A DNA stretch of 64,000 nt, from the NCBI GenBank assembly GCA_947380295.1, contig CANCQK010000002.1, forward strand, positions 10,557-74,556. The letters are read 5' to 3'. This document shows positions 909 through 12,769 of the stretch, piece by piece. Numbering within the stretch: position 1 is the stretch's first letter; each line of letters starts with the position of its first letter. A program made the position numbers and the translations under genes. The notes beneath the pieces were generated by a model. That model searched no databases and was not told the DNA's origin. It saw only the letters and a list, made by a program, of their open reading frames with translations. This DNA is from Bdellovibrionales bacterium. Lineage in GTDB: Bacteria; Bdellovibrionota; UBA1018.

Positions 909-1127
909 TTGATCAAGCTTCAGGACTGGGTTGAAGATGTTGAGAATCGAGGCCTTGAAATTGTCCGACAAATCCCTGGTTACCACGACGAACCCCTCAA
1001 AGGAAAATTAGCTGGTACTAGGTCCATCAGACTTGGGAAGGGATGGCGAGCTTATTACCAAATTAGAGAGTCCAAGCGAATTATGGTTTGGGTTGAGAGG
1101 ATTGATAAACATGAGTCCGGTAAGTAG
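909..1127 (+). CDS. higB: HigB-like (RelE/ParE superfamily) type II toxin; the 909 start is a TTG codon
   Basis: EPLKGKLAGTRSIRLGKGWRAYYQI...VWVERIDKHE aligns with the HigB 'plasmid maintenance system killer' core (HPLKGDREGYWSITV..WRITF). It is followed by, and overlaps, an XRE-HTH gene. Confidence 0.6.
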   Translation: MIKLQDWVEDVENRGLEIVRQIPGYHDEPLKGKLAGTRSIRLGKGWRAYYQIRESKRIMVWVERIDKHESGK

Positions 1128-1431
1128 AAAAAAAAGTAAGGCACTCCAAAGTCTAGAAGCAGCAACCGGTGGGCCTGTAACCCTGGGGAAGCTCCTTGAG
1201 TCTATTCGCTTAGGTGAAGAAAAGACCCAGCCTGATTTTGCAAAAACACTTGGGATTTCAAAGTCTCATCTCAATGACATTGAGAAGGGAAGGAAGGTGG
1301 TTAGCCCTGATCGTGCTGCAAGATTTGCAAAATCTCTTGGGTATTCTGAAGAGCGTTTTGTAACTCTTTCGCTTCAAGGTATTATAGATCAGGCTGGCCT
1401 AGCTTTTCGTGTGGAACTGAAGTTTGGCTAG
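1111..1431 (+). CDS. higA: HigA-like antitoxin, XRE-family HTH DNA-binding protein; likely start at the internal Met, 17 nt overlapping the toxin
   Basis: HTH segment FAKTLGISKSHLNDIEKGRK. Toxin-then-antitoxin gene order is typical of higBA. The ORF track extends it upstream to 1033; I take the internal Met at 1111. Confidence 0.55.
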   Translation: MSPVSRKKSKALQSLEAATGGPVTLGKLLESIRLGEEKTQPDFAKTLGISKSHLNDIEKGRKVVSPDRAARFAKSLGYSEERFVTLSLQGIIDQAGLAFRVELKFG

Positions 1432-2976: not shown

Positions 2977-3495
2977 ATGAAGATCAAGAGCGGAACTATG
3001 CATCAAGTTTTAGGAACCTTAGGTTTGGCACTCACTCTTTTTGTGACAGCATGTGCGACTGAAAAGAAAAAGGAAGTCACCGAAACCGAAGGCGGCGGTA
3101 TTCCTACGGCCGCTTCTGCGGACGAAACTGCAGGCGGTGATTCAGATTCAGGCAAGGCCATGGGGCTTCAAACGGTGTTTTTCCCTTATGACTCTTTTGT
3201 TCTGGATAGGACAGCTAAAGATGCGCTTAAGGCTAATGCTAATCTGTTGAAAGAAAAAAGCAGTTTGAAAGTTCAAATTGAAGGGCACTGCGATCAGCGC
3301 GGCGGGATTCAATACAACATTGCTTTGGGCGAAAAGCGAGCCAATGCGACCCGTAAATACCTCCAAGACATGGGCGTTGACGCCAGTCGATTGACGGTGA
3401 TTAGCTTTGGTAAGGAAAAGCCTCTCGATCCAGGGACCTCTGAAGCGGCTTACTCAAAGAATCGTCGATCGAACTTTGTCGTCACTTCAAAGTAG
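2977..3495 (+). CDS. pal: peptidoglycan-associated lipoprotein Pal (OmpA C-terminal domain lipoprotein)
   Basis: Lipobox LTLFVTAC. The OmpA_C core reads FFPYDSFVLD...IEGHCDQRGGIQYNIALGEKRANA. A CpoB-like gene lies downstream. Confidence 0.75.
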   Translation: MKIKSGTMHQVLGTLGLALTLFVTACATEKKKEVTETEGGGIPTAASADETAGGDSDSGKAMGLQTVFFPYDSFVLDRTAKDALKANANLLKEKSSLKVQIEGHCDQRGGIQYNIALGEKRANATRKYLQDMGVDASRLTVISFGKEKPLDPGTSEAAYSKNRRSNFVVTSK

Positions 3496-3577: not shown

Positions 3578-4090
3578 ATGAAAAAGGATCTCTTCCTTAT
3601 GCCTTTTTATTTGAGTCGACTTTGGATTTTATCCGTACCGGTGGCTTGTGGAGTGAGTTGCGCTCTCGTTGCGACTCGACCTGTCCAGGAGATGTCTGAT
3701 GCTGTGGCAGCGATCCGAGCAGCCCGGGAAGTTCAGGCAGATGTCCTATCTCCCGATAATTTTCGTCAAGCAATGGATCTGTTCGAGCAAGCCAAAAGGG
3801 AATATCGCTTTAAAGACTTTGCCATAGCAAAAGAGCACGCCGATGATTCTCGCGTCCTGGCAGAAAAAGCTGAGCTAGACGCGCTGCTCAATGGCGGAGC
3901 TCGAGCATCTTCGGGTGATAAAATACCTGATCCGTTGGGGGAGGGATTTCAATCGGATCAGGGTTCTGCAAATGCTCTGTCGAAGCCGAAGGCGGAACCC
4001 TATGTTTATCCTACACCTACCCCAGTGCCTGCCGAGGAGGCAGTTCAGCGCCAAATTCAGGAACAAGGCGCCGCAAACCGGGTGAAGTAG
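3578..4090 (+). CDS. DUF4398-like lipoprotein (hypothetical)
   Basis: Signal/lipobox N-terminus and an Ala-rich helical region. DUF4398 is commonly adjacent to OmpA-family genes. Identified by family resemblance only. Confidence 0.35.
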   Translation: MKKDLFLMPFYLSRLWILSVPVACGVSCALVATRPVQEMSDAVAAIRAAREVQADVLSPDNFRQAMDLFEQAKREYRFKDFAIAKEHADDSRVLAEKAELDALLNGGARASSGDKIPDPLGEGFQSDQGSANALSKPKAEPYVYPTPTPVPAEEAVQRQIQEQGAANRVK

Positions 4091-4133: not shown

Positions 4134-4898
4134 ATGAAGACTTTCCATACTCAGCAGTTAATCGGAGCCGTTGTGTTTTGTTTTTTAACTTTGCAGCTTC
4201 AGGGTTGTCTGAAGACGAGGTCTCAGCTGCGGAGTGAGTCGAGTGATGAAATGAGCGAGGCAGAGCCTTCTCGAAGGGTCGCTTCAGCTCCTCCCGTGCA
4301 GGACGTTAAACCTCAGGGTGAGTATGTCATTGAGGAGTTAAAAGACGAGATTACCCGACTTTCAGGGCATCTTGAGGAACTTGAGCATCAGCAAAAGGAG
4401 TTTCAAAAAAGCTCCCATAACGAAAAAATGGGAGATGAGCTTCGAAAACTGGAAGCCCGAATCAGTCAGCTTGAAAAGAACCAGCAGGCAATTCAGGATT
4501 CACTGGCTGAATTTCATGAAATGGCTCAATCGCATCAAGACCCAAATGAGATTTTCAAGACGGCGAAAGAACTTTTCAGCGAGGGACGTTATCAGGAAGC
4601 CGCTGATCAATTGGCGAAAGTCGAAAAAAACTCTAAGGCTAAGAACAAGGACGATGCTACTTTTTTGAGAGGTGAGTGCTTTTTCAGTCTCAAGCAATTT
4701 AAAAAAGCCGTCGTCGAGTATTCAAAATTTCCAGAAAAATATACTCATTCCAGTCACTACCCTGAAGCGCTTTACAAAATCGGACTCTCTTTTGAATCGA
4801 TGGGGATGAAAGAGGATGCAAAAGGCTTCTACCAGGAGTTAGTTGAGAAGTTTCCAAAAAGTCCCCAGGCTAAGAAAATAAGAAAAAAAGTTAAATAA
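4134..4898 (+). CDS. cpoB: CpoB/YbgF-like Tol-Pal associated protein (coiled coil plus C-terminal TPR)
   Basis: Signal peptide, a central coiled coil (LEELEHQQKEFQK...ISQLEKNQQAIQD), and a C-terminal TPR-like region (YQEAADQLAKV...ALYKIGLSFESMG). It sits after pal. Confidence 0.55.
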   Translation: MKTFHTQQLIGAVVFCFLTLQLQGCLKTRSQLRSESSDEMSEAEPSRRVASAPPVQDVKPQGEYVIEELKDEITRLSGHLEELEHQQKEFQKSSHNEKMGDELRKLEARISQLEKNQQAIQDSLAEFHEMAQSHQDPNEIFKTAKELFSEGRYQEAADQLAKVEKNSKAKNKDDATFLRGECFFSLKQFKKAVVEYSKFPEKYTHSSHYPEALYKIGLSFESMGMKEDAKGFYQELVEKFPKSPQAKKIRKKVK

Positions 4899-6461
4899 AT
4901 GAGATGCCCCAAATCGATACGGCTTTTTCTGGGGTTTTTTAGTTTCCTGATTTTATCTCAAACTAGCCTTGCGACGACCTTGGTTCACACGAATGACGTG
5001 ATGGGGGATCTAGAGCCCTGCGGGTGTCGGAGTAATCCTCAGGGCGGAATGGCTCGAAAGGCGAACCTGATCAGACGCCTGATAGATCGAGACGTGATTC
5101 AACTCGATGCCGGGGATCTTTTATTTTCAACCTTGGAAATTCCCGAACTGCTTAGGGAGCAGTCTCAGGTCCAGGCTGGGTACCTTTTACGCTCAATGGA
5201 TTTACTGAGGCACGACGCTGCGGTACCTGGCGAGAAAGATTTTTCCCTCGGATTTCGAGTTTTTGAAACACTTCGCAAAAAGACTCAGGTCCAATTTGTT
5301 GCTGCAAACTTGAAACTGCGATCAGGTCAGAAGTATTTGGAGCCGCATCTCCTGATTCATCGGGGTTTGAAAGTTGGTGTGATTGGCGTGGTCGGGGCTA
5401 AGTTGAAGTGGCCAAAAGAACTCCGGGTCACTTCGGCAATTCAGGCAGTTCGTAAAGAAATCAAGCAACTGAAAGCGAAAAAAGCTGACACCATTATTGT
5501 ATTGAGTCACCAAGGGTTTGACGACGATGTTGAATTAGCCAAGTCTGTGAGCGGGATTGATGTCATTGTCGGAGGTCACACTCAATCATTTCTTCAGACG
5601 CCTGTGCATGAGGGACGCACTCTCATTTTACAGTCTTCTTTTAAAAATCAATATGTGGGGGTCTTGCCGCTTTCTCGTCCACTTAAGGAGGAAGATTATC
5701 AACTGAAAGGTCTGGATGCTGGATATGATTCACCAGTGCAGGCTCCAAGTGAGATGGATCAGTTGGTGCGTGAATTTAAGGAAGCCATTGCACGACTCAA
5801 CTCCCTCCGAGAGATAGGCCTTCACGCCCAAACCTCCGCATCTCACCCTTCGGCGCCGGCGCGGGAGGCCTCCTATCAGACCTTTCCTCAGTGTGCTCAG
5901 TGTCATCTCAAGCAGTTTGATTTTTGGCGGAAGACCCCTCACTTTCATGCTCTGAGTGCCTTGGTGCAAAAAAATCAGGAAAGTAACAAAGAGTGTCTTC
6001 AGTGCCATACCTTGGGACTAGGAGAGGTGCGTGGGTTCAGTGCAATAGAGCAGCTGGGCGAATTTAAAAATCCAGAGGGTGTTCCAGAGAGTCAGGCTAA
6101 AAGGCTCACTGGAGCTGAATGGGCTAGTTTTTTAGATCGGGTTGCTCGGGCAAAGTCTGTGGATGATTCGATCGATGTTCCCTTTTCAGTTTCTCGTTCT
6201 GTTCCCGTCCGTCAGGCCATGCAGAGTTTAAAGAGGGTCTGGGCGCTGCCTCAGTGTGAAAGTTGCCATCAGGCCGGTGGGGAACACCCCTTTTCTGGAG
6301 CCTATTCAAAAGTCGTCCAGTCGACGGCTTGCTTGAAATGTCATACACAAGAACGGGCGCCTTCATGGTATAAGGGTGGCCAACCTGACTCTGAGCTGAT
6401 CCAGACTAAATTGAAAGCGATGACCTGCCCCGCAGGGGAGCTTTCGGAGTCGGTCGATTGA
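4899..6461 (+). CDS. secreted fusion protein: N-terminal 5'-nucleotidase/metallophosphatase-like domain with substituted metal-ligand motifs, plus a C-terminal tetra-heme cytochrome c
   Basis: Signal peptide. LVHTNDVMGD, DAGDLLF, VPGEKDF (in place of GNHEFD), LSHQGFDDD, VIVGGHTQS. Four CxxCH motifs: CAQCH, CLQCH, CESCH, CLKCH. Confidence 0.55.
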   Translation: MRCPKSIRLFLGFFSFLILSQTSLATTLVHTNDVMGDLEPCGCRSNPQGGMARKANLIRRLIDRDVIQLDAGDLLFSTLEIPELLREQSQVQAGYLLRSMDLLRHDAAVPGEKDFSLGFRVFETLRKKTQVQFVAANLKLRSGQKYLEPHLLIHRGLKVGVIGVVGAKLKWPKELRVTSAIQAVRKEIKQLKAKKADTIIVLSHQGFDDDVELAKSVSGIDVIVGGHTQSFLQTPVHEGRTLILQSSFKNQYVGVLPLSRPLKEEDYQLKGLDAGYDSPVQAPSEMDQLVREFKEAIARLNSLREIGLHAQTSASHPSAPAREASYQTFPQCAQCHLKQFDFWRKTPHFHALSALVQKNQESNKECLQCHTLGLGEVRGFSAIEQLGEFKNPEGVPESQAKRLTGAEWASFLDRVARAKSVDDSIDVPFSVSRSVPVRQAMQSLKRVWALPQCESCHQAGGEHPFSGAYSKVVQSTACLKCHTQERAPSWYKGGQPDSELIQTKLKAMTCPAGELSESVD

Positions 6462-6495: not shown

Positions 6496-7593
6496 ATGAA
6501 AAAATATTTACTAGGAATTGAAACCTCCTGTGATGAGTGCAGCGCGGCAGTCGTATCTTTTGATCCTGAAAATCCCCAGGCGCCTATTCACGTGGAAAGT
6601 GTCGCAACCTTTTCTCAAATTAAAATTCATCAACCTTATGGTGGGGTGGTTCCTGAGATTGCCTCCCGCAATCACCTCGAAACCGTGAATGAAATGATCG
6701 ACGAGGCAATTCAGATTTCAGGGATTGATCCCAAGCGAGATCTTGACGCGATTGCCGTAACCAATCGCCCGGGCTTGGTGGGAGCATTGCTCGTGGGAGT
6801 GAGCGCGGCTAAGTCCCTCGCTTACGCTTTAAAAAAGCCCCTGATTGCAGTCCACCACCTCGAGGGACATGCGAGTAGTCTTTTCCTGTCTGACTCTATG
6901 TCTCAGAGTCGCGTTCACGAAGCCGAGTACCCGATGCTGTTGGCGATGGTGTCAGGTGGGCACACGAATTTGTACCGAATGGAGAGCCATCCATTGAGCT
7001 GGCCAAAAGACTTTTTGAAGAAATCTCTCGTAGGTCGCTCCCGAGACGATGCCGCTGGGGAGGCTTTCGATAAGACCGCAAAGCTTCTCGGCTTTCCTTA
7101 TCCCGGGGGAGTTTGGATTGATCAAGAGGGTCGCGGAGGAAATCCGAGTGCTTACCCGCTCCCACGTGCTTTGCCTCAAAAATCTACTTTGGATTTTTCA
7201 TTTAGCGGTTTGAAAACAGCTGTATCGTTGTTGGCCGATCGTCTAAAAAAAGAAGGTACCTTAGAAAAAGAAATGAAAGACGTTTGTGCCTCAGTTCAAG
7301 AGGCGATCGTCGATGCGCTTTTGAGTAAAATCTATTTAGCGATTCGTGAGCATGGGTGCCAGAGTTTAGCCATAGTCGGCGGGGTGGCTGCAAATTCGCG
7401 CCTGCGAGAGCGGTTAGATCGCGAGTGGAAAAATCTAGGACTCAATGGCGCGCCGCTTTTTCCACAGTTAAAATATTGTACAGATAACGCAGCAATGATT
7501 GCGGGAGCGGGAGTGTTTCGCTTTCTTCAAGGAAACTACTTGAAGCAAGAGGAGTACCTGACTCTCAATGCGATTGCTAACCCCGAAATTTGA
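6496..7593 (+). CDS. tsaD: tRNA N6-adenosine threonylcarbamoyltransferase TsaD (Kae1/Gcp)
   Basis: MKKYLLGIETSCDECSAAVV N-terminus; HHLEGH; SGGVAANSRLR. Confidence 0.9.
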   Translation: MKKYLLGIETSCDECSAAVVSFDPENPQAPIHVESVATFSQIKIHQPYGGVVPEIASRNHLETVNEMIDEAIQISGIDPKRDLDAIAVTNRPGLVGALLVGVSAAKSLAYALKKPLIAVHHLEGHASSLFLSDSMSQSRVHEAEYPMLLAMVSGGHTNLYRMESHPLSWPKDFLKKSLVGRSRDDAAGEAFDKTAKLLGFPYPGGVWIDQEGRGGNPSAYPLPRALPQKSTLDFSFSGLKTAVSLLADRLKKEGTLEKEMKDVCASVQEAIVDALLSKIYLAIREHGCQSLAIVGGVAANSRLRERLDREWKNLGLNGAPLFPQLKYCTDNAAMIAGAGVFRFLQGNYLKQEEYLTLNAIANPEI

Positions 7594-7600
7594 GGATTAA

Positions 7601-8428
7601 ATGGCCACCCACGGAAGAAGAAGAGCTTTAGGACAACATTTTTTAAGAGACGTCAGCATTTGTAACCAGATTGCTGAAACGGCATTAGAACAAGCCCAGC
7701 ACTTCGGCTGTAAGAGTTTACTTGAGATCGGGCCCGGCAAGGGCGCAATCACAGTGCCGATTCTCGACCGGATGCCTACTGCTCCTTTGATCGAAAACTT
7801 CACCTTAGTGGAGAGAGATCAGAGGCTAGCTCAGGAATGGAAAGTTAAATTTCAAGAGCTCAAAGAAAAAGGTCTTTGGGTTGAGCCAGGAGACTTTCTC
7901 GAAGTTCCTCGAGAAAAGTGGATCAAGTCTGAGCCTCTTGCTGTCGTATCAAACTTACCCTACTCTGCAGGGACTGCAATTGTTGTACGACTGGCTGAGG
8001 AAACTCACAGCATCCCGGTGATGGTCTTGATGTTTCAGGCAGAGGTTGCCAAGCGCCTCATGGCTGGCCCTAGTTCTGATGGGCGCGGGAGCCTCTCGGT
8101 TTGGATTCAAAACCATTGGGATGTTAAATCCCTGGTTAAAGTTCCTCCGAGGGCATTTATTCCGCCGCCAGAAGTTCAGTCTGAAGTGGTCGTCCTCACG
8201 CGACGAGAAAAACCGTGGATCGATGTCCATGCTGTCCATGAAGGCCCCCAAATCTGGCAGGCGATTCTCAAGGCTGCTTTTGCTCATCGACGTAAAATGC
8301 TCCGCTCGACTTTTCCCTGGCCTAAGGCGCTTGAGGCTTCGGGCATTGATCCTACTCTTCGAGCCGAAGCTCTCGACTGGACTCAGTGGGAAGCTCTTTT
8401 TAGAGCAGTCCTTCTAGAGCGTAAATAG
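7601..8428 (+). CDS. rsmA: 16S rRNA (adenine1518/1519-N6)-dimethyltransferase RsmA/KsgA
   Basis: LGQHFLRD, LEIGPGKGAIT, and the SNLPY motif. Confidence 0.9.
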   Translation: MATHGRRRALGQHFLRDVSICNQIAETALEQAQHFGCKSLLEIGPGKGAITVPILDRMPTAPLIENFTLVERDQRLAQEWKVKFQELKEKGLWVEPGDFLEVPREKWIKSEPLAVVSNLPYSAGTAIVVRLAEETHSIPVMVLMFQAEVAKRLMAGPSSDGRGSLSVWIQNHWDVKSLVKVPPRAFIPPPEVQSEVVVLTRREKPWIDVHAVHEGPQIWQAILKAAFAHRRKMLRSTFPWPKALEASGIDPTLRAEALDWTQWEALFRAVLLERK

Positions 8429-8513: not shown

Positions 8514-10181
8514 ATGAAAATCCGATCTTTTTTGGGGATCTCTTCCCTTGTTTTATTGCTGGGACTGAGATCCGCCTGGGCTCAACCTGAGAGGCAGGTT
8601 GAGCATTACTCATCTCGTCCTTCCATTCAATGTGTGGCTTCTGTTTCTCATTCAGATCTTTTTGAGAAATCCTGGCCCACACTTAAACAGGCCCAGTTAG
8701 AGTTTGTCGCTCAGGTTCTAGGGCTGTACCCAAGTGATGAAATTTATTTCTTAGCTCGGGATTCGGAGCTTTTCTTTGACCTCAGCGTACTCCTCATGGG
8801 AGTAGAAGATCGGACTCAATTGAGTCGCTTGCATCTTGTCAACGTTTCTCGGTCACATCTCGGAGCCCCGTTTCTTTTTGACTACTTGGAGCAAGAAGGG
8901 GTCTCCTACGAGGGTCTTCGTTCGGGGAAACGCTATCTTTTTGTCGATACAGGATTTACTGGCTCGATTCCTAGAAAGATCCTGAAACAGTTCACTAGTC
9001 ATCTGGGTCCAGAAGTGGGGGCACAATTTCATTGCCACTTTGTGTCTTCGATGAATCCCAGAATCCCTTCATCTCGCATTTTTTTAGCGACGCTCAGCCC
9101 TGCATCCGTGGGTCATGATCCGGGGTGGATGCGGAACACTGTCTTAGAGTACGAGTATCTCCATCGATTCAACTTTCGCTCCACCGAGTACGACTGGGTA
9201 GACGAGCGGTGGGAGCCCGCGGCTCCGCGCACAGATCAGGTCGAGAATGATGGTAAGGTTTCTCGGCCCGAGGCACTTCGGTATATGGAGGATCTTAAAG
9301 CCTATTCTGAGTTGGAGTCGACTCGTGCTCTATTTCGTGCTCGTCTCCACCTTTGGCAGCAGTTGAGGGAGGCAGCGGAGAACTCCGAACAAAGCGAGTT
9401 GGTTGCGTTGCTGAAGGCCCTGCTGGTTCGGCAGGATCTCCCAGGAGAGGCCATCGTTCGAGATTTTTTGGAATGGCAGGGCAAGGTTCTGTCTATTTTT
9501 ATTGAACTGGATGAGCTGGGGCTGATGCCCGAACATAGCATGGGTCCGAGTTCAAATAAGCGCCAGCTGATCCTGAAGTGCCCTCACTGGCGATCGATCT
9601 TAGAAGATCCGATCATTGAAGTCCCAAAGATCGTCGAAAATGGTGATTTTTTGAATTTGAACCGAATTCTGGACGTCCTTGATGATGTCCAAATTCAAAA
9701 AATAATCTTTCGCGCATTGGCGGGGCCTTTTCCGACCGAAGAAATTAAATTTGAAGCTAGAAAAAGTCTCCTCGCTCGAATTGACTTAGATAAAGGCAAA
9801 GAGCGAGAATGGATCGCTTTAGAGACCTTTTCTCAGGCCAGTTCTGTTGATTTAGGTCAGGTGCTCAATCGACTCATTGATGAGGGAGACTCTCAGGTTT
9901 GGTCTATTTTAGTGCTGAACGCATTTAAAAAACCCCATTCCATTGCCTGGAAATCTGAGCTTAACCTGCTTTTAGAGGTGGCTGAACCCGTTCATTTAAT
10001 TCAAATATTTTGTCACCCTCATTCCAAGGATTGGGGGGATGAGTTGGCTACTCTGACCGAACGGTGTGATCTAAAAATTCTGGATTTTATTTGGCGGCGG
10101 GTGTTGTCCAGACCTCATTCAATCGACTGGGGAGTAGGTGTATTCCTACTGGTTGAAGAGAGAATTAAAAAGTTAAGGTAA
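8514..10181 (+). CDS. hypothetical secreted protein (555 aa)
   Basis: N-terminal signal peptide (LVLLLGLRSAWA-QPE). I recognise no known domain. Confidence 0.45.
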   Translation: MKIRSFLGISSLVLLLGLRSAWAQPERQVEHYSSRPSIQCVASVSHSDLFEKSWPTLKQAQLEFVAQVLGLYPSDEIYFLARDSELFFDLSVLLMGVEDRTQLSRLHLVNVSRSHLGAPFLFDYLEQEGVSYEGLRSGKRYLFVDTGFTGSIPRKILKQFTSHLGPEVGAQFHCHFVSSMNPRIPSSRIFLATLSPASVGHDPGWMRNTVLEYEYLHRFNFRSTEYDWVDERWEPAAPRTDQVENDGKVSRPEALRYMEDLKAYSELESTRALFRARLHLWQQLREAAENSEQSELVALLKALLVRQDLPGEAIVRDFLEWQGKVLSIFIELDELGLMPEHSMGPSSNKRQLILKCPHWRSILEDPIIEVPKIVENGDFLNLNRILDVLDDVQIQKIIFRALAGPFPTEEIKFEARKSLLARIDLDKGKEREWIALETFSQASSVDLGQVLNRLIDEGDSQVWSILVLNAFKKPHSIAWKSELNLLLEVAEPVHLIQIFCHPHSKDWGDELATLTERCDLKILDFIWRRVLSRPHSIDWGVGVFLLVEERIKKLR

Positions 10182-10222: not shown

Positions 10223-11404
10223 CTACGACCAGTAACTCCAGGGTACAACAGCGATTCCTCGTTTTGGGACTTCAATCGAGTTCACTGGCGCGACTATGAT
10301 ACCTTGTTTCGCTCCTAGTGCCTTCATAGCGCCACTCATCGCTCGCTCGTAATAGCCCATCGAACTTGTAGTTACGGCCTCAGCAATGATTCGGATCGGT
10401 ATCTCATCCCAAACTAGATCAATGACCGCCCCTTTTGCGCTCTTGAAGTAAAGCTTTTGAAGTGGCTTGCCTTGATATTCATTGAAACAGAAAATCTCAT
10501 TCAAAATCATATGTCGAGCCAAAGAGAGCAAAGTCCCAGGGCCGCTTTTTTGGCGAGCTAGGTGATATGCCAAGCCGGCATCCCCAAAAATCCAATGATC
10601 ATTCCCAACTCCTGATTCGTGACAGGTAAACCGCCTTAAGAAGAATATATCCTGAAGTGCCTGGATATATTTTTTTGCCTTGCGCTTATCACTAGAAACA
10701 TATGCCAAAGATGGATACTCTCCCTCAGGCAGCGCCTTAGCAAGCATCCTCACTAATGAGATACAATACTCCGGGTCAAATCCTCTGCCATACGCTTTCT
10801 GAGCATCCCGAGCCAAAGTCGTATCCAACCACTGATCCCAGTAGGACCCTCGAACTTGATCGTCCCGCAAAAACGCAGGCACGGGCAGTCCACCCAGATT
10901 CATTTGGAGAGATAGATCTTCTACAGAAAAGCGAAGGTTGCACTCACCTTTCAGGATTGGCCCGGCTTGATTCATCCTGAATGTCGTAGGTTTTAACTCG
11001 GCAAGGCAAAGAGGATAAAGATGCACCATCCCAATCCTGCCAGTCAGCGATTCTCGAATTCCCACTTTGTTTGAGAATGCCACAGAGCCTGATAGGAACC
11101 AGCGGCCCGGAATTTTTCTTCGATCGACCAACGCCTTAAGTGAGTCAAAAAGCACAGGCACCTTCTGCACCTCATCCAAAACCGTAGGCCCGCCTGAATG
11201 GCGTGATAGAAAAACCTTGGGGGAAAGCTCTGCCTCACTCCTGACCTCCGCATCATCAAAAGTAAGATAATTTGGGATCTGAATCCGATCTCTGAGTAGA
11301 GTGGACTTACCCACCTGCCTGAGTCCCAAAACTCCGATAATTGGCCAAAAAGAAGCCATTTTTCTTAGGTATGTTTCAGCCCATCGTTCTCTTTGGTGCG
11401 GCAT
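10223..11404 (-). CDS. AAA_14-type ATPase with C-terminal DUF4143 domain (paralogue A)
   Basis: Walker A GLRQVGKSTLL, Walker B VLDEVQ, the IRESLTGR motif, and FGDAGL in the C-terminal domain. Confidence 0.7.
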   Translation of the reverse strand: MPHQRERWAETYLRKMASFWPIIGVLGLRQVGKSTLLRDRIQIPNYLTFDDAEVRSEAELSPKVFLSRHSGGPTVLDEVQKVPVLFDSLKALVDRRKIPGRWFLSGSVAFSNKVGIRESLTGRIGMVHLYPLCLAELKPTTFRMNQAGPILKGECNLRFSVEDLSLQMNLGGLPVPAFLRDDQVRGSYWDQWLDTTLARDAQKAYGRGFDPEYCISLVRMLAKALPEGEYPSLAYVSSDKRKAKKYIQALQDIFFLRRFTCHESGVGNDHWIFGDAGLAYHLARQKSGPGTLLSLARHMILNEIFCFNEYQGKPLQKLYFKSAKGAVIDLVWDEIPIRIIAEAVTTSSMGYYERAMSGAMKALGAKQGIIVAPVNSIEVPKRGIAVVPWSYWS

Positions 11405-11566
11405 AAACCTCGCAATTCATTTTTTCGAACCCAGCACTCAGATCACTAGGAAACAAAAGGGATGTAAAACTCTAAGTGCTGCTATTTTTTCACCCAATCT
11501 TGTACTAAAAGGGTAGCACTTATCGGAGAGGTAGGCACTGTTTTTCTTTTTCAGTCTAAGTAGGTG

Positions 11567-12769
11567 TCAAATTAAGGCATTCCACGGCAATGAAGCGAGG
11601 CGGGTATGGAGTACCTTCGTTTCTTTTCCAAGATGAACGATGAGGGCGTAGCCTGATGGGTGAGCTTTTAGGAAGCTCTCTGCGCTTTTCAGCGAAGAAA
11701 GCGATGCCTGACGATCTAAAGTGGGGATAATCGCTAGGGGGCGTCCAAATGCCTGAAAAATAAGCGGTACGTAGGCGCCTCCTCGAGTCCTATAAGAGTG
11801 CGTCGAATATTGAAGACCATCAGTGTAGTGATAGCCTTCGCGAAGGTTGCAGAACAGAAAGTGCGTAAATCCTTGGAGAGTTAGAAACTCGCTGGATTGG
11901 TTAGTTAAAAACTTTGCTAGCCCTGCGTCTTCAAAATAAAATGTATCTGGAGTGGACTGCCCGAGCTGACTCATTGGACGGATTAAAAATAATGCTTCTA
12001 GTGCAGAAAAAAGCTTTTTTAAAGTGATCGTAGAAATGCCTGTTTCTCGTCTGAGTGATTCCCAATGGAGAATGGATCCTTGTGTGCGGGCTAGGGTAGA
12101 GATGAGGGCCAGAAGAGTCATTTTTGGAAGAGTAGTTTCAACGATGAGGCGCAAATCTCGATCGAGCAAAGTGTCGAGATGGGTTCTGAATTTGCTTGCT
12201 CGGTGCTGAGCGTTGCGCCCAAAACAAATTCCAGGTAGACCCCCCAGCTCAAGGTAGCGAATCATTCCACTTTCGCTTTCTGAAAGTCTTGGTTTGAGTT
12301 CTCGCGTTAGAGCGCTGAGCCCTTTTTGGTGGAGTTCGATGAGGAGTGGGTTCAACGGAAGTGAATGAGATTCAGACCAGGTCATCGGTAGTAGTTCAGT
12401 GATGAGAACTCGTCCTGTCAGTGATTCCCGAATTGCTTTCCTACTCGTAAAGCGGACTGAGCCGGTGAGCAAAAATTGACCCGGCTTCTTGTGCGTGCGT
12501 ACATAGTCTTTTAGCGCCGGGAAAAGCCGTGGCGAAAGCTGACATTCGTCAATCATGAACGGTGCAGGGCGGTTAGAAATGAAGTCATTGGGACCGCTTT
12601 CACAAAGCGTGAGGTCTTCCTCGCGATCCAAGGTTCGCATGTCCTGACTGAGGTGTTCGCAAAGAGTTGTTTTGCCGGTTTGGCGATGGCCAATTACCCC
12701 AACGATGGAAGACGCCTTGAGTGCTTGAACAACGATCGGAGTGAGATGTCTTTTTCGCTCATGGGGCAT
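11567..12769 (-). CDS. AAA_14-type ATPase with C-terminal DUF4143 domain (paralogue B)
   Basis: Walker A GHRQTGKTTL, Walker B MIDECQ, IRESLTGR, and FEDAGL. Its N-terminus MPHERKR parallels MPHQRER in paralogue A. Confidence 0.7.
   Translation of the reverse strand: MPHERKRHLTPIVVQALKASSIVGVIGHRQTGKTTLCEHLSQDMRTLDREEDLTLCESGPNDFISNRPAPFMIDECQLSPRLFPALKDYVRTHKKPGQFLLTGSVRFTSRKAIRESLTGRVLITELLPMTWSESHSLPLNPLLIELHQKGLSALTRELKPRLSESESGMIRYLELGGLPGICFGRNAQHRASKFRTHLDTLLDRDLRLIVETTLPKMTLLALISTLARTQGSILHWESLRRETGISTITLKKLFSALEALFLIRPMSQLGQSTPDTFYFEDAGLAKFLTNQSSEFLTLQGFTHFLFCNLREGYHYTDGLQYSTHSYRTRGGAYVPLIFQAFGRPLAIIPTLDRQASLSSLKSAESFLKAHPSGYALIVHLGKETKVLHTRLASLPWNALI

Follow-up and report, generated by a model that had tools for sequence, protein, structure and literature searches.

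Gene X, which occupies positions 4899..6461 on the forward strand of a 64,000-nucleotide window from a Bdellovibrionales bacterium (contig CANCQK010000002.1), is an open reading frame (ORF) with an ATG start that encodes a secreted protein of 520 amino acids, in which a UshA-like domain bearing a Cys-Gly-Cys loop is joined to a tetraheme cytochrome. By its sequence, X is a Cys-form member of the catalogued UshA-like (seleno)protein family. We propose that it probably acts as a periplasmic, heme-wired thiol/selenol redox enzyme of the cell envelope and not as a nucleotidase.

This family has featured in selenoproteome surveys since 2008 and is represented by an NCBIfam model. The surveys list it as "UshA-like protein, COG0737 / NF041198", with the motif CxU and without a function (PMC2398784, PMC9312934, PMC13188914), and none of the other literature that we found assigns one. 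No paper was found that combines nucleotidase, multiheme, selenocysteine and Geobacter. Three of the features reported here, namely the operon link to pal and cpoB, the correlated loss of half of the metal site and the deficit of heme ligands, occur in no paper that we found, no directed search for them having been made. In public records, members of the clade of X are annotated only as "multiheme c-type cytochrome" or "hypothetical protein".

The best NCBIfam match of X is NF041198, "UshA-like (seleno)protein" (UshA_like_PCGU), with an E value of 7.7e-77 and a score of 259 bits, which falls 16 bits short of the curated cutoff of 275. The clade of X straddles this cutoff, as P0005 (288 bits) and P0120 (284) pass it and P0028 (264) and P0104 (262) fail; a more distant locus with selenocysteine (Sec), L029, passes with 297 bits. 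When the two domains were scanned separately against the 519 positions of the model, the N-domain aligned to positions 18-265 and the heme domain to 392-455. Since both domains match, the fusion of a nucleotidase-like domain to a heme domain is the normal architecture of the family, and the description of X as an unusual fusion in the original prediction, which had been made from the sequence of the window by itself, has to be given up. A profile search of a 1.84-billion representative library returned 1225 proteins at E ≤ 1e-30, and among the best 150 of these nearly all are full-length fusions with four CxxCH motifs.

Two sets of relatives were used for conservation analysis. The close homologs, at least 120 of which were listed, share 42-70% identity with X and are labelled Bacteriovoracaceae, Oligoflexia, Bdellovibrionota or Bdellovibrio sp. 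The family alignment comprises 107 representatives at 50% clustering or lower that were picked for full length, four CxxCH motifs and an N-terminal CxC; because of this choice, the counts for CxC and CxxCH in the 107 show the register of the alignment and not independent conservation. A separate scan of a genome collection, with one protein and not a profile as the query, returned 13 loci.

The feature that defines the family is a loop shortly past the first strand of the N-domain, the P-C-G-U/C motif that is the hallmark of NF041198. In X it is present in the Cys form (5013..5030, + strand): directly after motif I of the former metal site the sequence continues as E39-P-C41-G-C43-R44-x-N-P-x-G-G, between strand 1 and helix 1, and we propose this loop as the redox-active centre on the basis of its conservation and of the Sec-containing relatives. 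The original prediction had missed it. All 112 close homologs whose sequence extends over this loop have both C41 and C43. Of the representatives not included in the 107, full-length ones have variants such as SCGC, PCNC, PCDC and PCHC, and others lack the N-terminus.

Relatives with Sec were sought in a metagenome collection with the nucleotide pattern GAR CCN TGY GGN TGA MGN NNN AAY CCN NNN GGN GG, worth about 44 bits. The scan yielded 15 loci against about 0.1 chance matches (a hand estimate). In each of the 15, a TGA codon stands in frame where X has Cys43, within EPCG-U-(R/S)xNPxGGxxR, and the homologous N-domain continues downstream. Stem-loops follow the UGA codon, for example a 9-bp GC-rich stem 22 nucleotides on in L016, L021, L022 and L024; their z-scores are modest and they serve as supporting evidence only. 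One Sec locus, L029, includes the four-heme domain with its four CxxCH motifs. The exchange of Sec and Cys between homologs is an established signature of a catalytic redox residue, and with Sec at this position in relatives we take Cys43 to be the catalytic redox residue of X.

The domain that carries this loop has the fold of a 5'-nucleotidase, as had been predicted. Residues 26-312 (4974..5834, + strand) comprise an N-domain of the 5'-nucleotidase-type metallophosphatase fold and a long linker helix. In a phmmer search against PDB chains, residues 25-234 matched snake-venom, human and Thermus 5'-nucleotidases with an E value of 1e-17. An AlphaFold model of X, built with 73 homologs (pLDDT 89.1, pTM 0.88; linker helix at 285-312), was submitted to Foldseek, and its N-domain and linker matched 3ive (c4898), CD73 and UshA with an E value of 3e-21 and about 22% identity, over some 310 residues of X and about 312-330 aligned columns.

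The metal site within this fold has been partly dismantled. All five motifs lie on the forward strand. Motif I, H-T-N-D33-V-M35-G (4986..5006), aligns to HTNDVH of the solved 5'-nucleotidases with Met in place of the ligand His, and the remnant of motif III, P-G-E112-K113-D114-F (5226..5243), aligns to GNHEF with Glu in place of Asn and Lys in place of the catalytic His. Structure-anchored alignments confirm the register of these substitutions, which the original prediction had read from the sequence together with the retained GGH and LSHxG. Position 35 is Leu in 81 and Met in 22 close homologs and drifts freely in the 107 representatives, so that Met is not a conserved replacement ligand. Position 33 is Asn in 73/107 and Asp in 30/107. 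Position 112 is Glu in 117/121 close homologs, and Asp (51) or Glu (44) in the 107. Position 113, that of the general-base His, is Lys in 120/121 close homologs and Lys, Gln or Arg across the family, drifting freely in the 107. The remaining motifs are better kept: motif II, D70-A-G-D73 (5106..5117), retains the bridging Asp (D70 in 102/107; position 73 has Asp in 91/107 and Asn in 15/107), motif IV, L-S-H204-Q-G (5502..5516), retains its ligand His (121/121 close homologs, 95/107 representatives), and motif V, G-G-H227-T-Q229 (5571..5585), retains His and Gln (118/121 and 121/121 close homologs; 91/107 and 78/107 representatives). The complete dimetal and catalytic set of a 5'-nucleotidase (Asp, His, Asp, Asn, His, His, His, Gln) is not found in X.

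Seen across the family, the site-1 half of the former dimetal centre is gone. The site-2 half (Asp73, Glu/Asp112, His204, His227) is kept together in 85/107 representatives and is invariant in the clade of X. Where it is lost, in about 20% of the heme-bearing members, its four residues tend to vanish together; in L009, from the clade of X, E112L, H204Q and H227R occur all at once and the CxC, the four hemes and Cys510 are kept. The joint loss marks these residues as one functional unit which, by this pattern, plays a secondary part in the work of the CxC and the hemes. In addition, no match to PF02872, the C-terminal domain of 5'-nucleotidases, was found in X at E ≤ 1 in Pfam, so the cytochrome takes the place of the nucleotide-binding domain of real 5'-nucleotidases. 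The substitutions, the lack of PF02872 and a fold match confined to the N-domain and linker are the main grounds for our conclusion that the N-domain is not that of a nucleotidase, which we hold as probable jointly with the redox function.

The retained half site makes a residual metallohydrolase role the main rival for the clade of X, although one that we regard as unlikely. According to it, a mononuclear or altered dinuclear centre (Asp33, Asp73, Glu112, His204, His227, Gln229) would hydrolyse an ester or a thiosulfonate in the manner of SoxB, and the hemes and the Cys pair would move electrons or regulate. The four site-2-type residues are indeed found together in 85/107 and invariantly in the clade of X, and outside its own family the best NCBIfam match of the N-domain is the SoxB thiosulfohydrolase model TIGR04486 (E 4.6e-22, 78 bits), above the UshA model NF007109 (51 bits, cutoff 600). 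The SoxB score is, however, far below its cutoff of 550, and the general-base His has become Lys, Gln or Arg. Moreover, about 20% of the members with hemes, and every Sec-type stand-alone member examined, have kept the CxC but lost the site-2 residues. The redox-coupled hydrolase put forward in the original prediction may thus apply to part of the family, but it does not account for members, Sec forms among them, in which the metal ligands are lost and the CxC and hemes stay.

The C-terminal region, residues 328-520 (5880..6458, + strand), is a c554-type tetraheme cytochrome c domain that replaces the substrate-binding C-terminal domain of 5'-nucleotidases. It reaches the gathering score of Pfam PF13435 (cytochrome c554), has a c554-like fold and contains the four CxxCH motifs noted at the outset, namely C332-A-Q-C-H336 of heme 1 (5892..5906), C366-L-Q-C-H370 of heme 2 (5994..6008), C453-E-S-C-H457 of heme 3 (6255..6269) and C478-L-K-C-H482 of heme 4 (6330..6344), all of them on the forward strand and all four present in the 107 representatives. 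Exactly four CxxCH motifs occur in 120/120 of the listed close homologs, and covalent heme attachment is predicted from them. A phmmer search of the PDB with the C-domain of X alone returned nothing significant; a profile of 18 diverse C-domains matched OcwA (E 8e-14) and c554 (E 6.5e-12).

Two distal histidines can be assigned in this domain. His348 (5940..5942, + strand) and His463 (6285..6287, + strand), each conserved in 107/107, align with His27 and His102 of c554, which we take to be the distal ligands of hemes 4 and 1, respectively. In the c554 structure published in 1998, the distal ligand of heme 3 is reportedly His179 and heme 2 is said to be five-coordinate. A third distal His is not conserved in the family of X, and the corresponding stretch instead holds Cys510 (T-C-P; 6426..6428, + strand), a third conserved free cysteine (121/121 close homologs, 102/107 representatives) and a candidate heme ligand or partner of the CxC. 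Position 504, in the same stretch, is Lys, His or Met in 64/107. With only two distal histidines conserved, hemes 2 and 3 are left without a conserved His partner, and two hemes without an obvious His partner are not the pattern of a plain electron wire. Heme 2 of X, which has no conserved distal His, corresponds in position to the heme that forms the open active site of c554, OcwA and MccA (bioRxiv 10.1101/641308).

The heme arrangement bears on a further alternative, in which X is a pure electron carrier whose tetraheme domain shuttles electrons and whose N-domain is an inert pseudo-phosphatase scaffold or a docking module. That c554 is itself an electron carrier, that X has no substrate-binding C-domain and that the classical catalytic residues His43, Asn116 and His117 (UshA numbering) have all been replaced would fit such a role. 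We nevertheless consider it improbable. Two hemes without a conserved distal His would be atypical for a simple wire, and the N-domain does not look inert: the residues found in 107/107 representatives (C41, C43, G49-G50, G72, G111, D114, N137, Q452, the four CxxCH motifs, H348 and H463) include its CxC loop, its glycines at 49, 50, 72 and 111, D114 and N137. Relatives have Sec in place of Cys43, a costly residue that an inert scaffold would not retain, and the existence of stand-alone, heme-free N-domains implies that this domain has a function of its own. The pseudo-phosphatase scaffold of the original prediction is thus unlikely, given a conserved CxC, the CxU of relatives and the half metal site that is kept.

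Attachment of c-type heme requires the periplasm, and the signal peptide of X fits this requirement. The N-terminus, MRCPKSIRLFLGFFSFLILSQTSLA followed by TT, reads by eye as a signal peptide of the Sec export pathway, with a basic N-terminus, a hydrophobic core and small residues at -3 and -1; it covers residues 1-25 (4899..4973, + strand) with cleavage after SLA, and positions 5-20 form a helix in the AlphaFold model. The claim that X is secreted is upheld to that extent.

The public gene call for this locus, P0001, gives an identical protein of 470 amino acids that begins at Met51 and covers none of window positions 4899-5048, so that it lacks the signal peptide, motif I and the PCGC loop. 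The gene calls for several homologs are shortened in the same way, whereby the family-defining motif is hidden from annotation. Homologs that start with "MARKANL..." were considered as Sec forms cut at TGA and rejected; the region upstream in L014 reads PCGC with no TGA, and such starts are gene-call artefacts.

A possible mechanism can be outlined from these features. Cys43, which is Sec in relatives, would be the attacking redox residue and Cys41 would resolve the intermediate. By fold topology, the CxC loop, between strand 1 (26-31) and helix 1 (51-60), should lie on the active-site face. The hemes would re-reduce or re-oxidise the Cys pair, a step for which the multiheme selenoprotein MccSep provides a precedent; the thiol/disulfide (or selenenylsulfide) reaction involves two electrons, and the four hemes would pass these singly between the pair and the cytochrome pool of the periplasm. 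The open heme 2, at the domain interface, would be the likely meeting point, perhaps with the participation of Cys510. Asp73, Glu112, His204 and His227, where retained, may act as an accessory substrate- or metal-binding feature of the clade of X. The likeliest substrates would be protein thiols or disulfides, or small sulfur and selenium compounds such as polysulfide, persulfide or oxyanions, and the role would be maintenance of the redox state of the envelope.

Thiol-disulfide exchange is also what a recurrent fusion in distant members points to. Two of them have, fused to the family module, a thioredoxin-fold domain that resembles DsbA and has a monothiol "CPYG" motif: in L029 (L029:433-2946, - strand) it follows the cytochrome, and in P0217, of 1207 amino acids, it lies between two copies of the UshA-like CxC N-domain. 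PF01323 scores just above its cutoff in both of these domains, which share 33% identity (E 2e-26). No DsbA-like domain of the L029/P0217 type is encoded in the 64-kb window. Thiol chemistry is also favoured by the surroundings of L031, the only family member that was found away from the pal cluster: genes for two SurA-like chaperones, SCO1/SenC and two Redoxin/AhpC-type proteins lie next to it. The fusions weigh against another improbable reading, that the Cys-Gly-Cys(/Sec) loop is a site for a soft metal such as Cu(I), to which Cys510 might contribute, and that it forms a heme-copper centre like that of the sulfite reductase MccA or serves as a periplasmic metal sensor or chaperone. CxC motifs can bind Cu(I), and the SCO1/SenC gene near the L031 member is of the copper-chaperone kind. 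Nothing supports metal handling directly, and Sec is rare at purely metal-binding sites outside Ni, Mo or W enzymes.

The genomic setting of X places it with envelope genes. Six genes lie on the forward strand with short gaps, with X as the fourth member of a pal-DUF4398-cpoB-X cluster that persists in deep Bdellovibrionota lineages: pal, for the peptidoglycan-associated lipoprotein (2977..3495; TIGR02802 Pal_lipo, E 1.6e-36); a DUF4398 lipoprotein-like gene (3578..4090; PF14346, 29 bits, above cutoff), found in the same position in related loci; a gene for a cpoB/ybgF-like TPR lipoprotein (4134..4898; NF053852, the CpoB-like predatory vesicle lipoprotein Bd0635, E 3e-24, and TIGR02795 tol_pal_ybgF, E 2.5e-21, both below cutoffs); X; tsaD after a 35-nucleotide gap (6496..7593; TIGR03723, E 3e-109); and rsmA/ksgA (7601..8428; TIGR00755, E 1.7e-56). 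At the junction GTT AAA TAA ATG the TAA stop of the cpoB-like ORF directly abuts the ATG of X, as had been noted.

The survey of related genomes that the original prediction had suggested shows that the fusion stays next to pal and cpoB at considerable distance. The order pal-DUF4398-cpoB-X was found in 14/15 related loci with comparable upstream DNA, down to 28-32% identity of X, and cpoB-X-tsaD in 11/11 genome loci with a full-length X (L001-L011, X identity 41-52%). Both pal and the DUF4398 gene are present in 10/11 of the latter; L004 has neither although the flank is present. An upstream pal is named for L001, L003 and L005-L011, and also for L012, L014, L030 and L032. The order is kept in L014 and, at 28-32% identity, in L030 (a Halobacteriovorax/Bacteriovorax-type clade) and L032. 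Downstream, the next gene is tsaD in L001-L011, L014 and L030; L032 lacks it at this place but still has pal-DUF4398-cpoB ahead of X, and the stable partner of X is thus the Pal-CpoB side. The stop of cpoB overlaps the first possible start of X, or lies within 34 nucleotides of it, in 12/14 loci, and on another ENA contig a TPR/YfiO-type gene precedes X with a 4-nucleotide overlap. A scan from pal to rsmA found no internal terminator or promoter beyond shuffled expectation. The co-transcription with pal and cpoB that had been suggested from the junction in the window is strengthened by this conserved order and spacing. In L009, a 343-amino-acid reverse-strand gene (L009:7014-8045) is inserted between cpoB and X, the latter lying at L009:7980-9497.

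In B. bacteriovorus, the CpoB homolog Bd0635 concentrates in the vesicle that is left in the prey, and it may be essential (PMC10769870); a homolog of X is mentioned neither in that paper and its proteome supplements nor in what a search for Bd0636-Bd0638 returned. A bolder formulation, which we offer as a doubtful possibility, is that X represents a new class of periplasmic enzyme in which a gutted 5'-nucleotidase fold presents a Cys-Gly-Cys/Sec pair to the open heme of a c554-type wire and couples thiol/disulfide or sulfane-sulfur chemistry to the respiratory cytochrome pool. In the Bdellovibrionota such an enzyme might belong functionally to the Pal-CpoB envelope module and be more than its neighbour, reoxidising or reducing thiols of envelope proteins during growth or prey invasion, for instance.

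Several observations weigh against the redox function that we favour. The literature offers no more than a name for the UshA-like (seleno)proteins. A proximity of the CxC to the metal site and heme 2 is presumed, the AlphaFold model contains no hemes, and the CxC loop is the least confidently modelled part of the N-domain (residues 41-50, mean pLDDT 73). The majority of the Sec forms consist of a stand-alone domain of about 290 amino acids that has neither hemes nor the classical metal ligands, so hemes are not obligatory for the chemistry of the module. The Asp/Glu/His/His ligand set is strictly kept in the clade of X, which makes a metal-dependent (hydrolytic) step possible there. Cultured Bdellovibrionota are aerobic predators, in which sulfur respiration is not expected, and genomes of a single phylum may share a gene order by descent, with no functional link behind it. 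Lastly, in the sister metagenome-assembled genome L012, whose neighbouring proteins are 95-98% identical to those of the window, about 1.36 kb of X is missing, and at L012:7990-8250 (approximately window 4960-6318) the codons of the signal peptide are joined out of frame to the last 48 or so codons. This deletion may mean that X is dispensable there, as a natural knockout, or it may be an assembly error.

The L012 deletion could also be taken to indicate that X is a decaying or non-functional gene, its substitutions recording the lost function of a former nucleotidase, and the X homolog of L008 (L008:6000-7479) is split into two frames near residue 91-93 by a frameshift or a sequencing error. 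In the window, however, the ORF is intact, and among 121 close homologs at 42-70% identity 98 positions are at least 95% conserved. The invariant or near-invariant residues among these homologs are N32-D33, E-P-C-G-C-R, N-P, G-G, R53, D70, G72-D73, P-G-E112-K113-D-F, H204, G-G-H227, Q229, the heme motifs, H348, H463, K504 and C510-P511, so that substituted residues such as E112 and K113 are themselves near-invariant, and the family has more than 1200 representatives at E ≤ 1e-30. The conservation pattern effectively refutes decay, to which we attach hardly any probability.

A few observations on more distant members stand apart from this argument. The gene neighbourhoods of the Sec-type stand-alone members L015-L028 show no consistent partner. 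Near one group of Sec-type members, genes for rubrerythrin, PerR and Tpx occur nearby but are parted from them by RNase G, and they were not used as evidence. L017:2795-4658 apparently contains two Sec-type stand-alone UshA-like genes in tandem, with both ORFs restarting at "VARRAT..."; only the second copy was seen after an in-frame TGA within the motif, and a gene for an Mrp/ApbC-like ATPase comes next. In one deep clade, two loci have a gene for a 1-Cys/2-Cys peroxiredoxin (AhpC-TSA, 1-cysPrx_C) at a distance of 2-3 kb on the downstream side of X (L032:10157-10771 and L033:3713-4327).

Elsewhere in the window, an overlapping pair at 909-1431 (+ strand), upstream of aroA, consists of a 72-amino-acid ORF and a 132-amino-acid HTH_3/HTH_31 protein and looks like a toxin-antitoxin pair of the HigB/HigA type. 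A secreted-looking ORF of 555 amino acids at 8514-10181 (+ strand) has no match in Pfam or NCBIfam; L012 has a copy with 89% identity, likewise after rsmA, and in L014 and L030 that place is taken by unannotated ORFs of 435-461 amino acids. At 10223-12769 (- strand), two adjacent AAA_14/DUF4143 ATPase genes lie between this ORF and a block of a 538-amino-acid ORF and SmpB. The pair is absent at the same place in L014 and thus looks like an insertion.

Cys-form members of the family are widespread, with more than 1200 representative clusters at E ≤ 1e-30, and they occur in cultivable predators such as Halobacteriovorax marinus, in which the family could be studied without selenoprotein expression. 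If the redox function is correct, X would be the second example, after MccSep, of Sec/Cys chemistry on a multiheme scaffold, and a case of a hydrolase fold recruited for redox catalysis. The tight and deeply conserved link to pal and cpoB, together with the marking of the "predatory vesicle" by CpoB (PMC10769870), hints that envelope biogenesis may be tied to periplasmic redox chemistry.

In comparison with known systems, X shares with the NF041198 family the 5'-nucleotidase-like N-domain with its PCG[U/C] loop and the C-terminal region of four CxxCH motifs, and it differs from it in having Cys and not Sec and in the strict retention, within its clade, of the Asp/Glu/His/His half metal site. 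With UshA and CD73 (PDB 1ush, 4h1s, 3ive) it has in common the N-domain fold, the long linker helix and motifs II, IV and V, whereas the site-1 His is replaced by Met or Leu, the Asn by Glu and the catalytic His by Lys, and the C-terminal domain has been swapped for a cytochrome. SoxB (PDB 2wdc), the characterised protein to which the N-domain scores highest in NCBIfam, is a periplasmic enzyme of the 5'-nucleotidase superfamily, and its substrate is a cysteine-bound sulfur oxyanion; the dimanganese ligand set is incomplete in X, and SoxB has neither hemes nor a CxC loop. Cytochrome c554 of Nitrosomonas europaea (PDB 1bvb/1ft5) and the OcwA module (6i5b) have four hemes in the same motif order as X, with no distal His at heme 2 in any of them; unlike c554, the domain of X is fused to an enzyme-like domain and has an insertion of about 70 residues between hemes 2 and 3. 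A functional parallel may be MccSep (PDB 9wt8), a polysulfide/selenite reductase from Geobacter sulfurreducens in which a multiheme cytochrome c is combined with Sec: its heme 2 has His and Cys as ligands, and a second domain contributes the Sec on a flexible D-G-U-P loop (bioRxiv 10.1101/2025.11.18.688581). That activity has been shown for MccSep only, which has five hemes and an Ig-like domain where X has four CxxCH motifs and a phosphatase-fold partner domain, and homology does not extend beyond the first heme motif (profile E 0.043), so that MccSep is an analogue and not a relative. In both families, Cys-type and Sec-type forms coexist, and both may follow the same working principle, in which a Sec or Cys on a Gly-containing loop from a second domain works with a heme 2 that lacks bis-His ligation.

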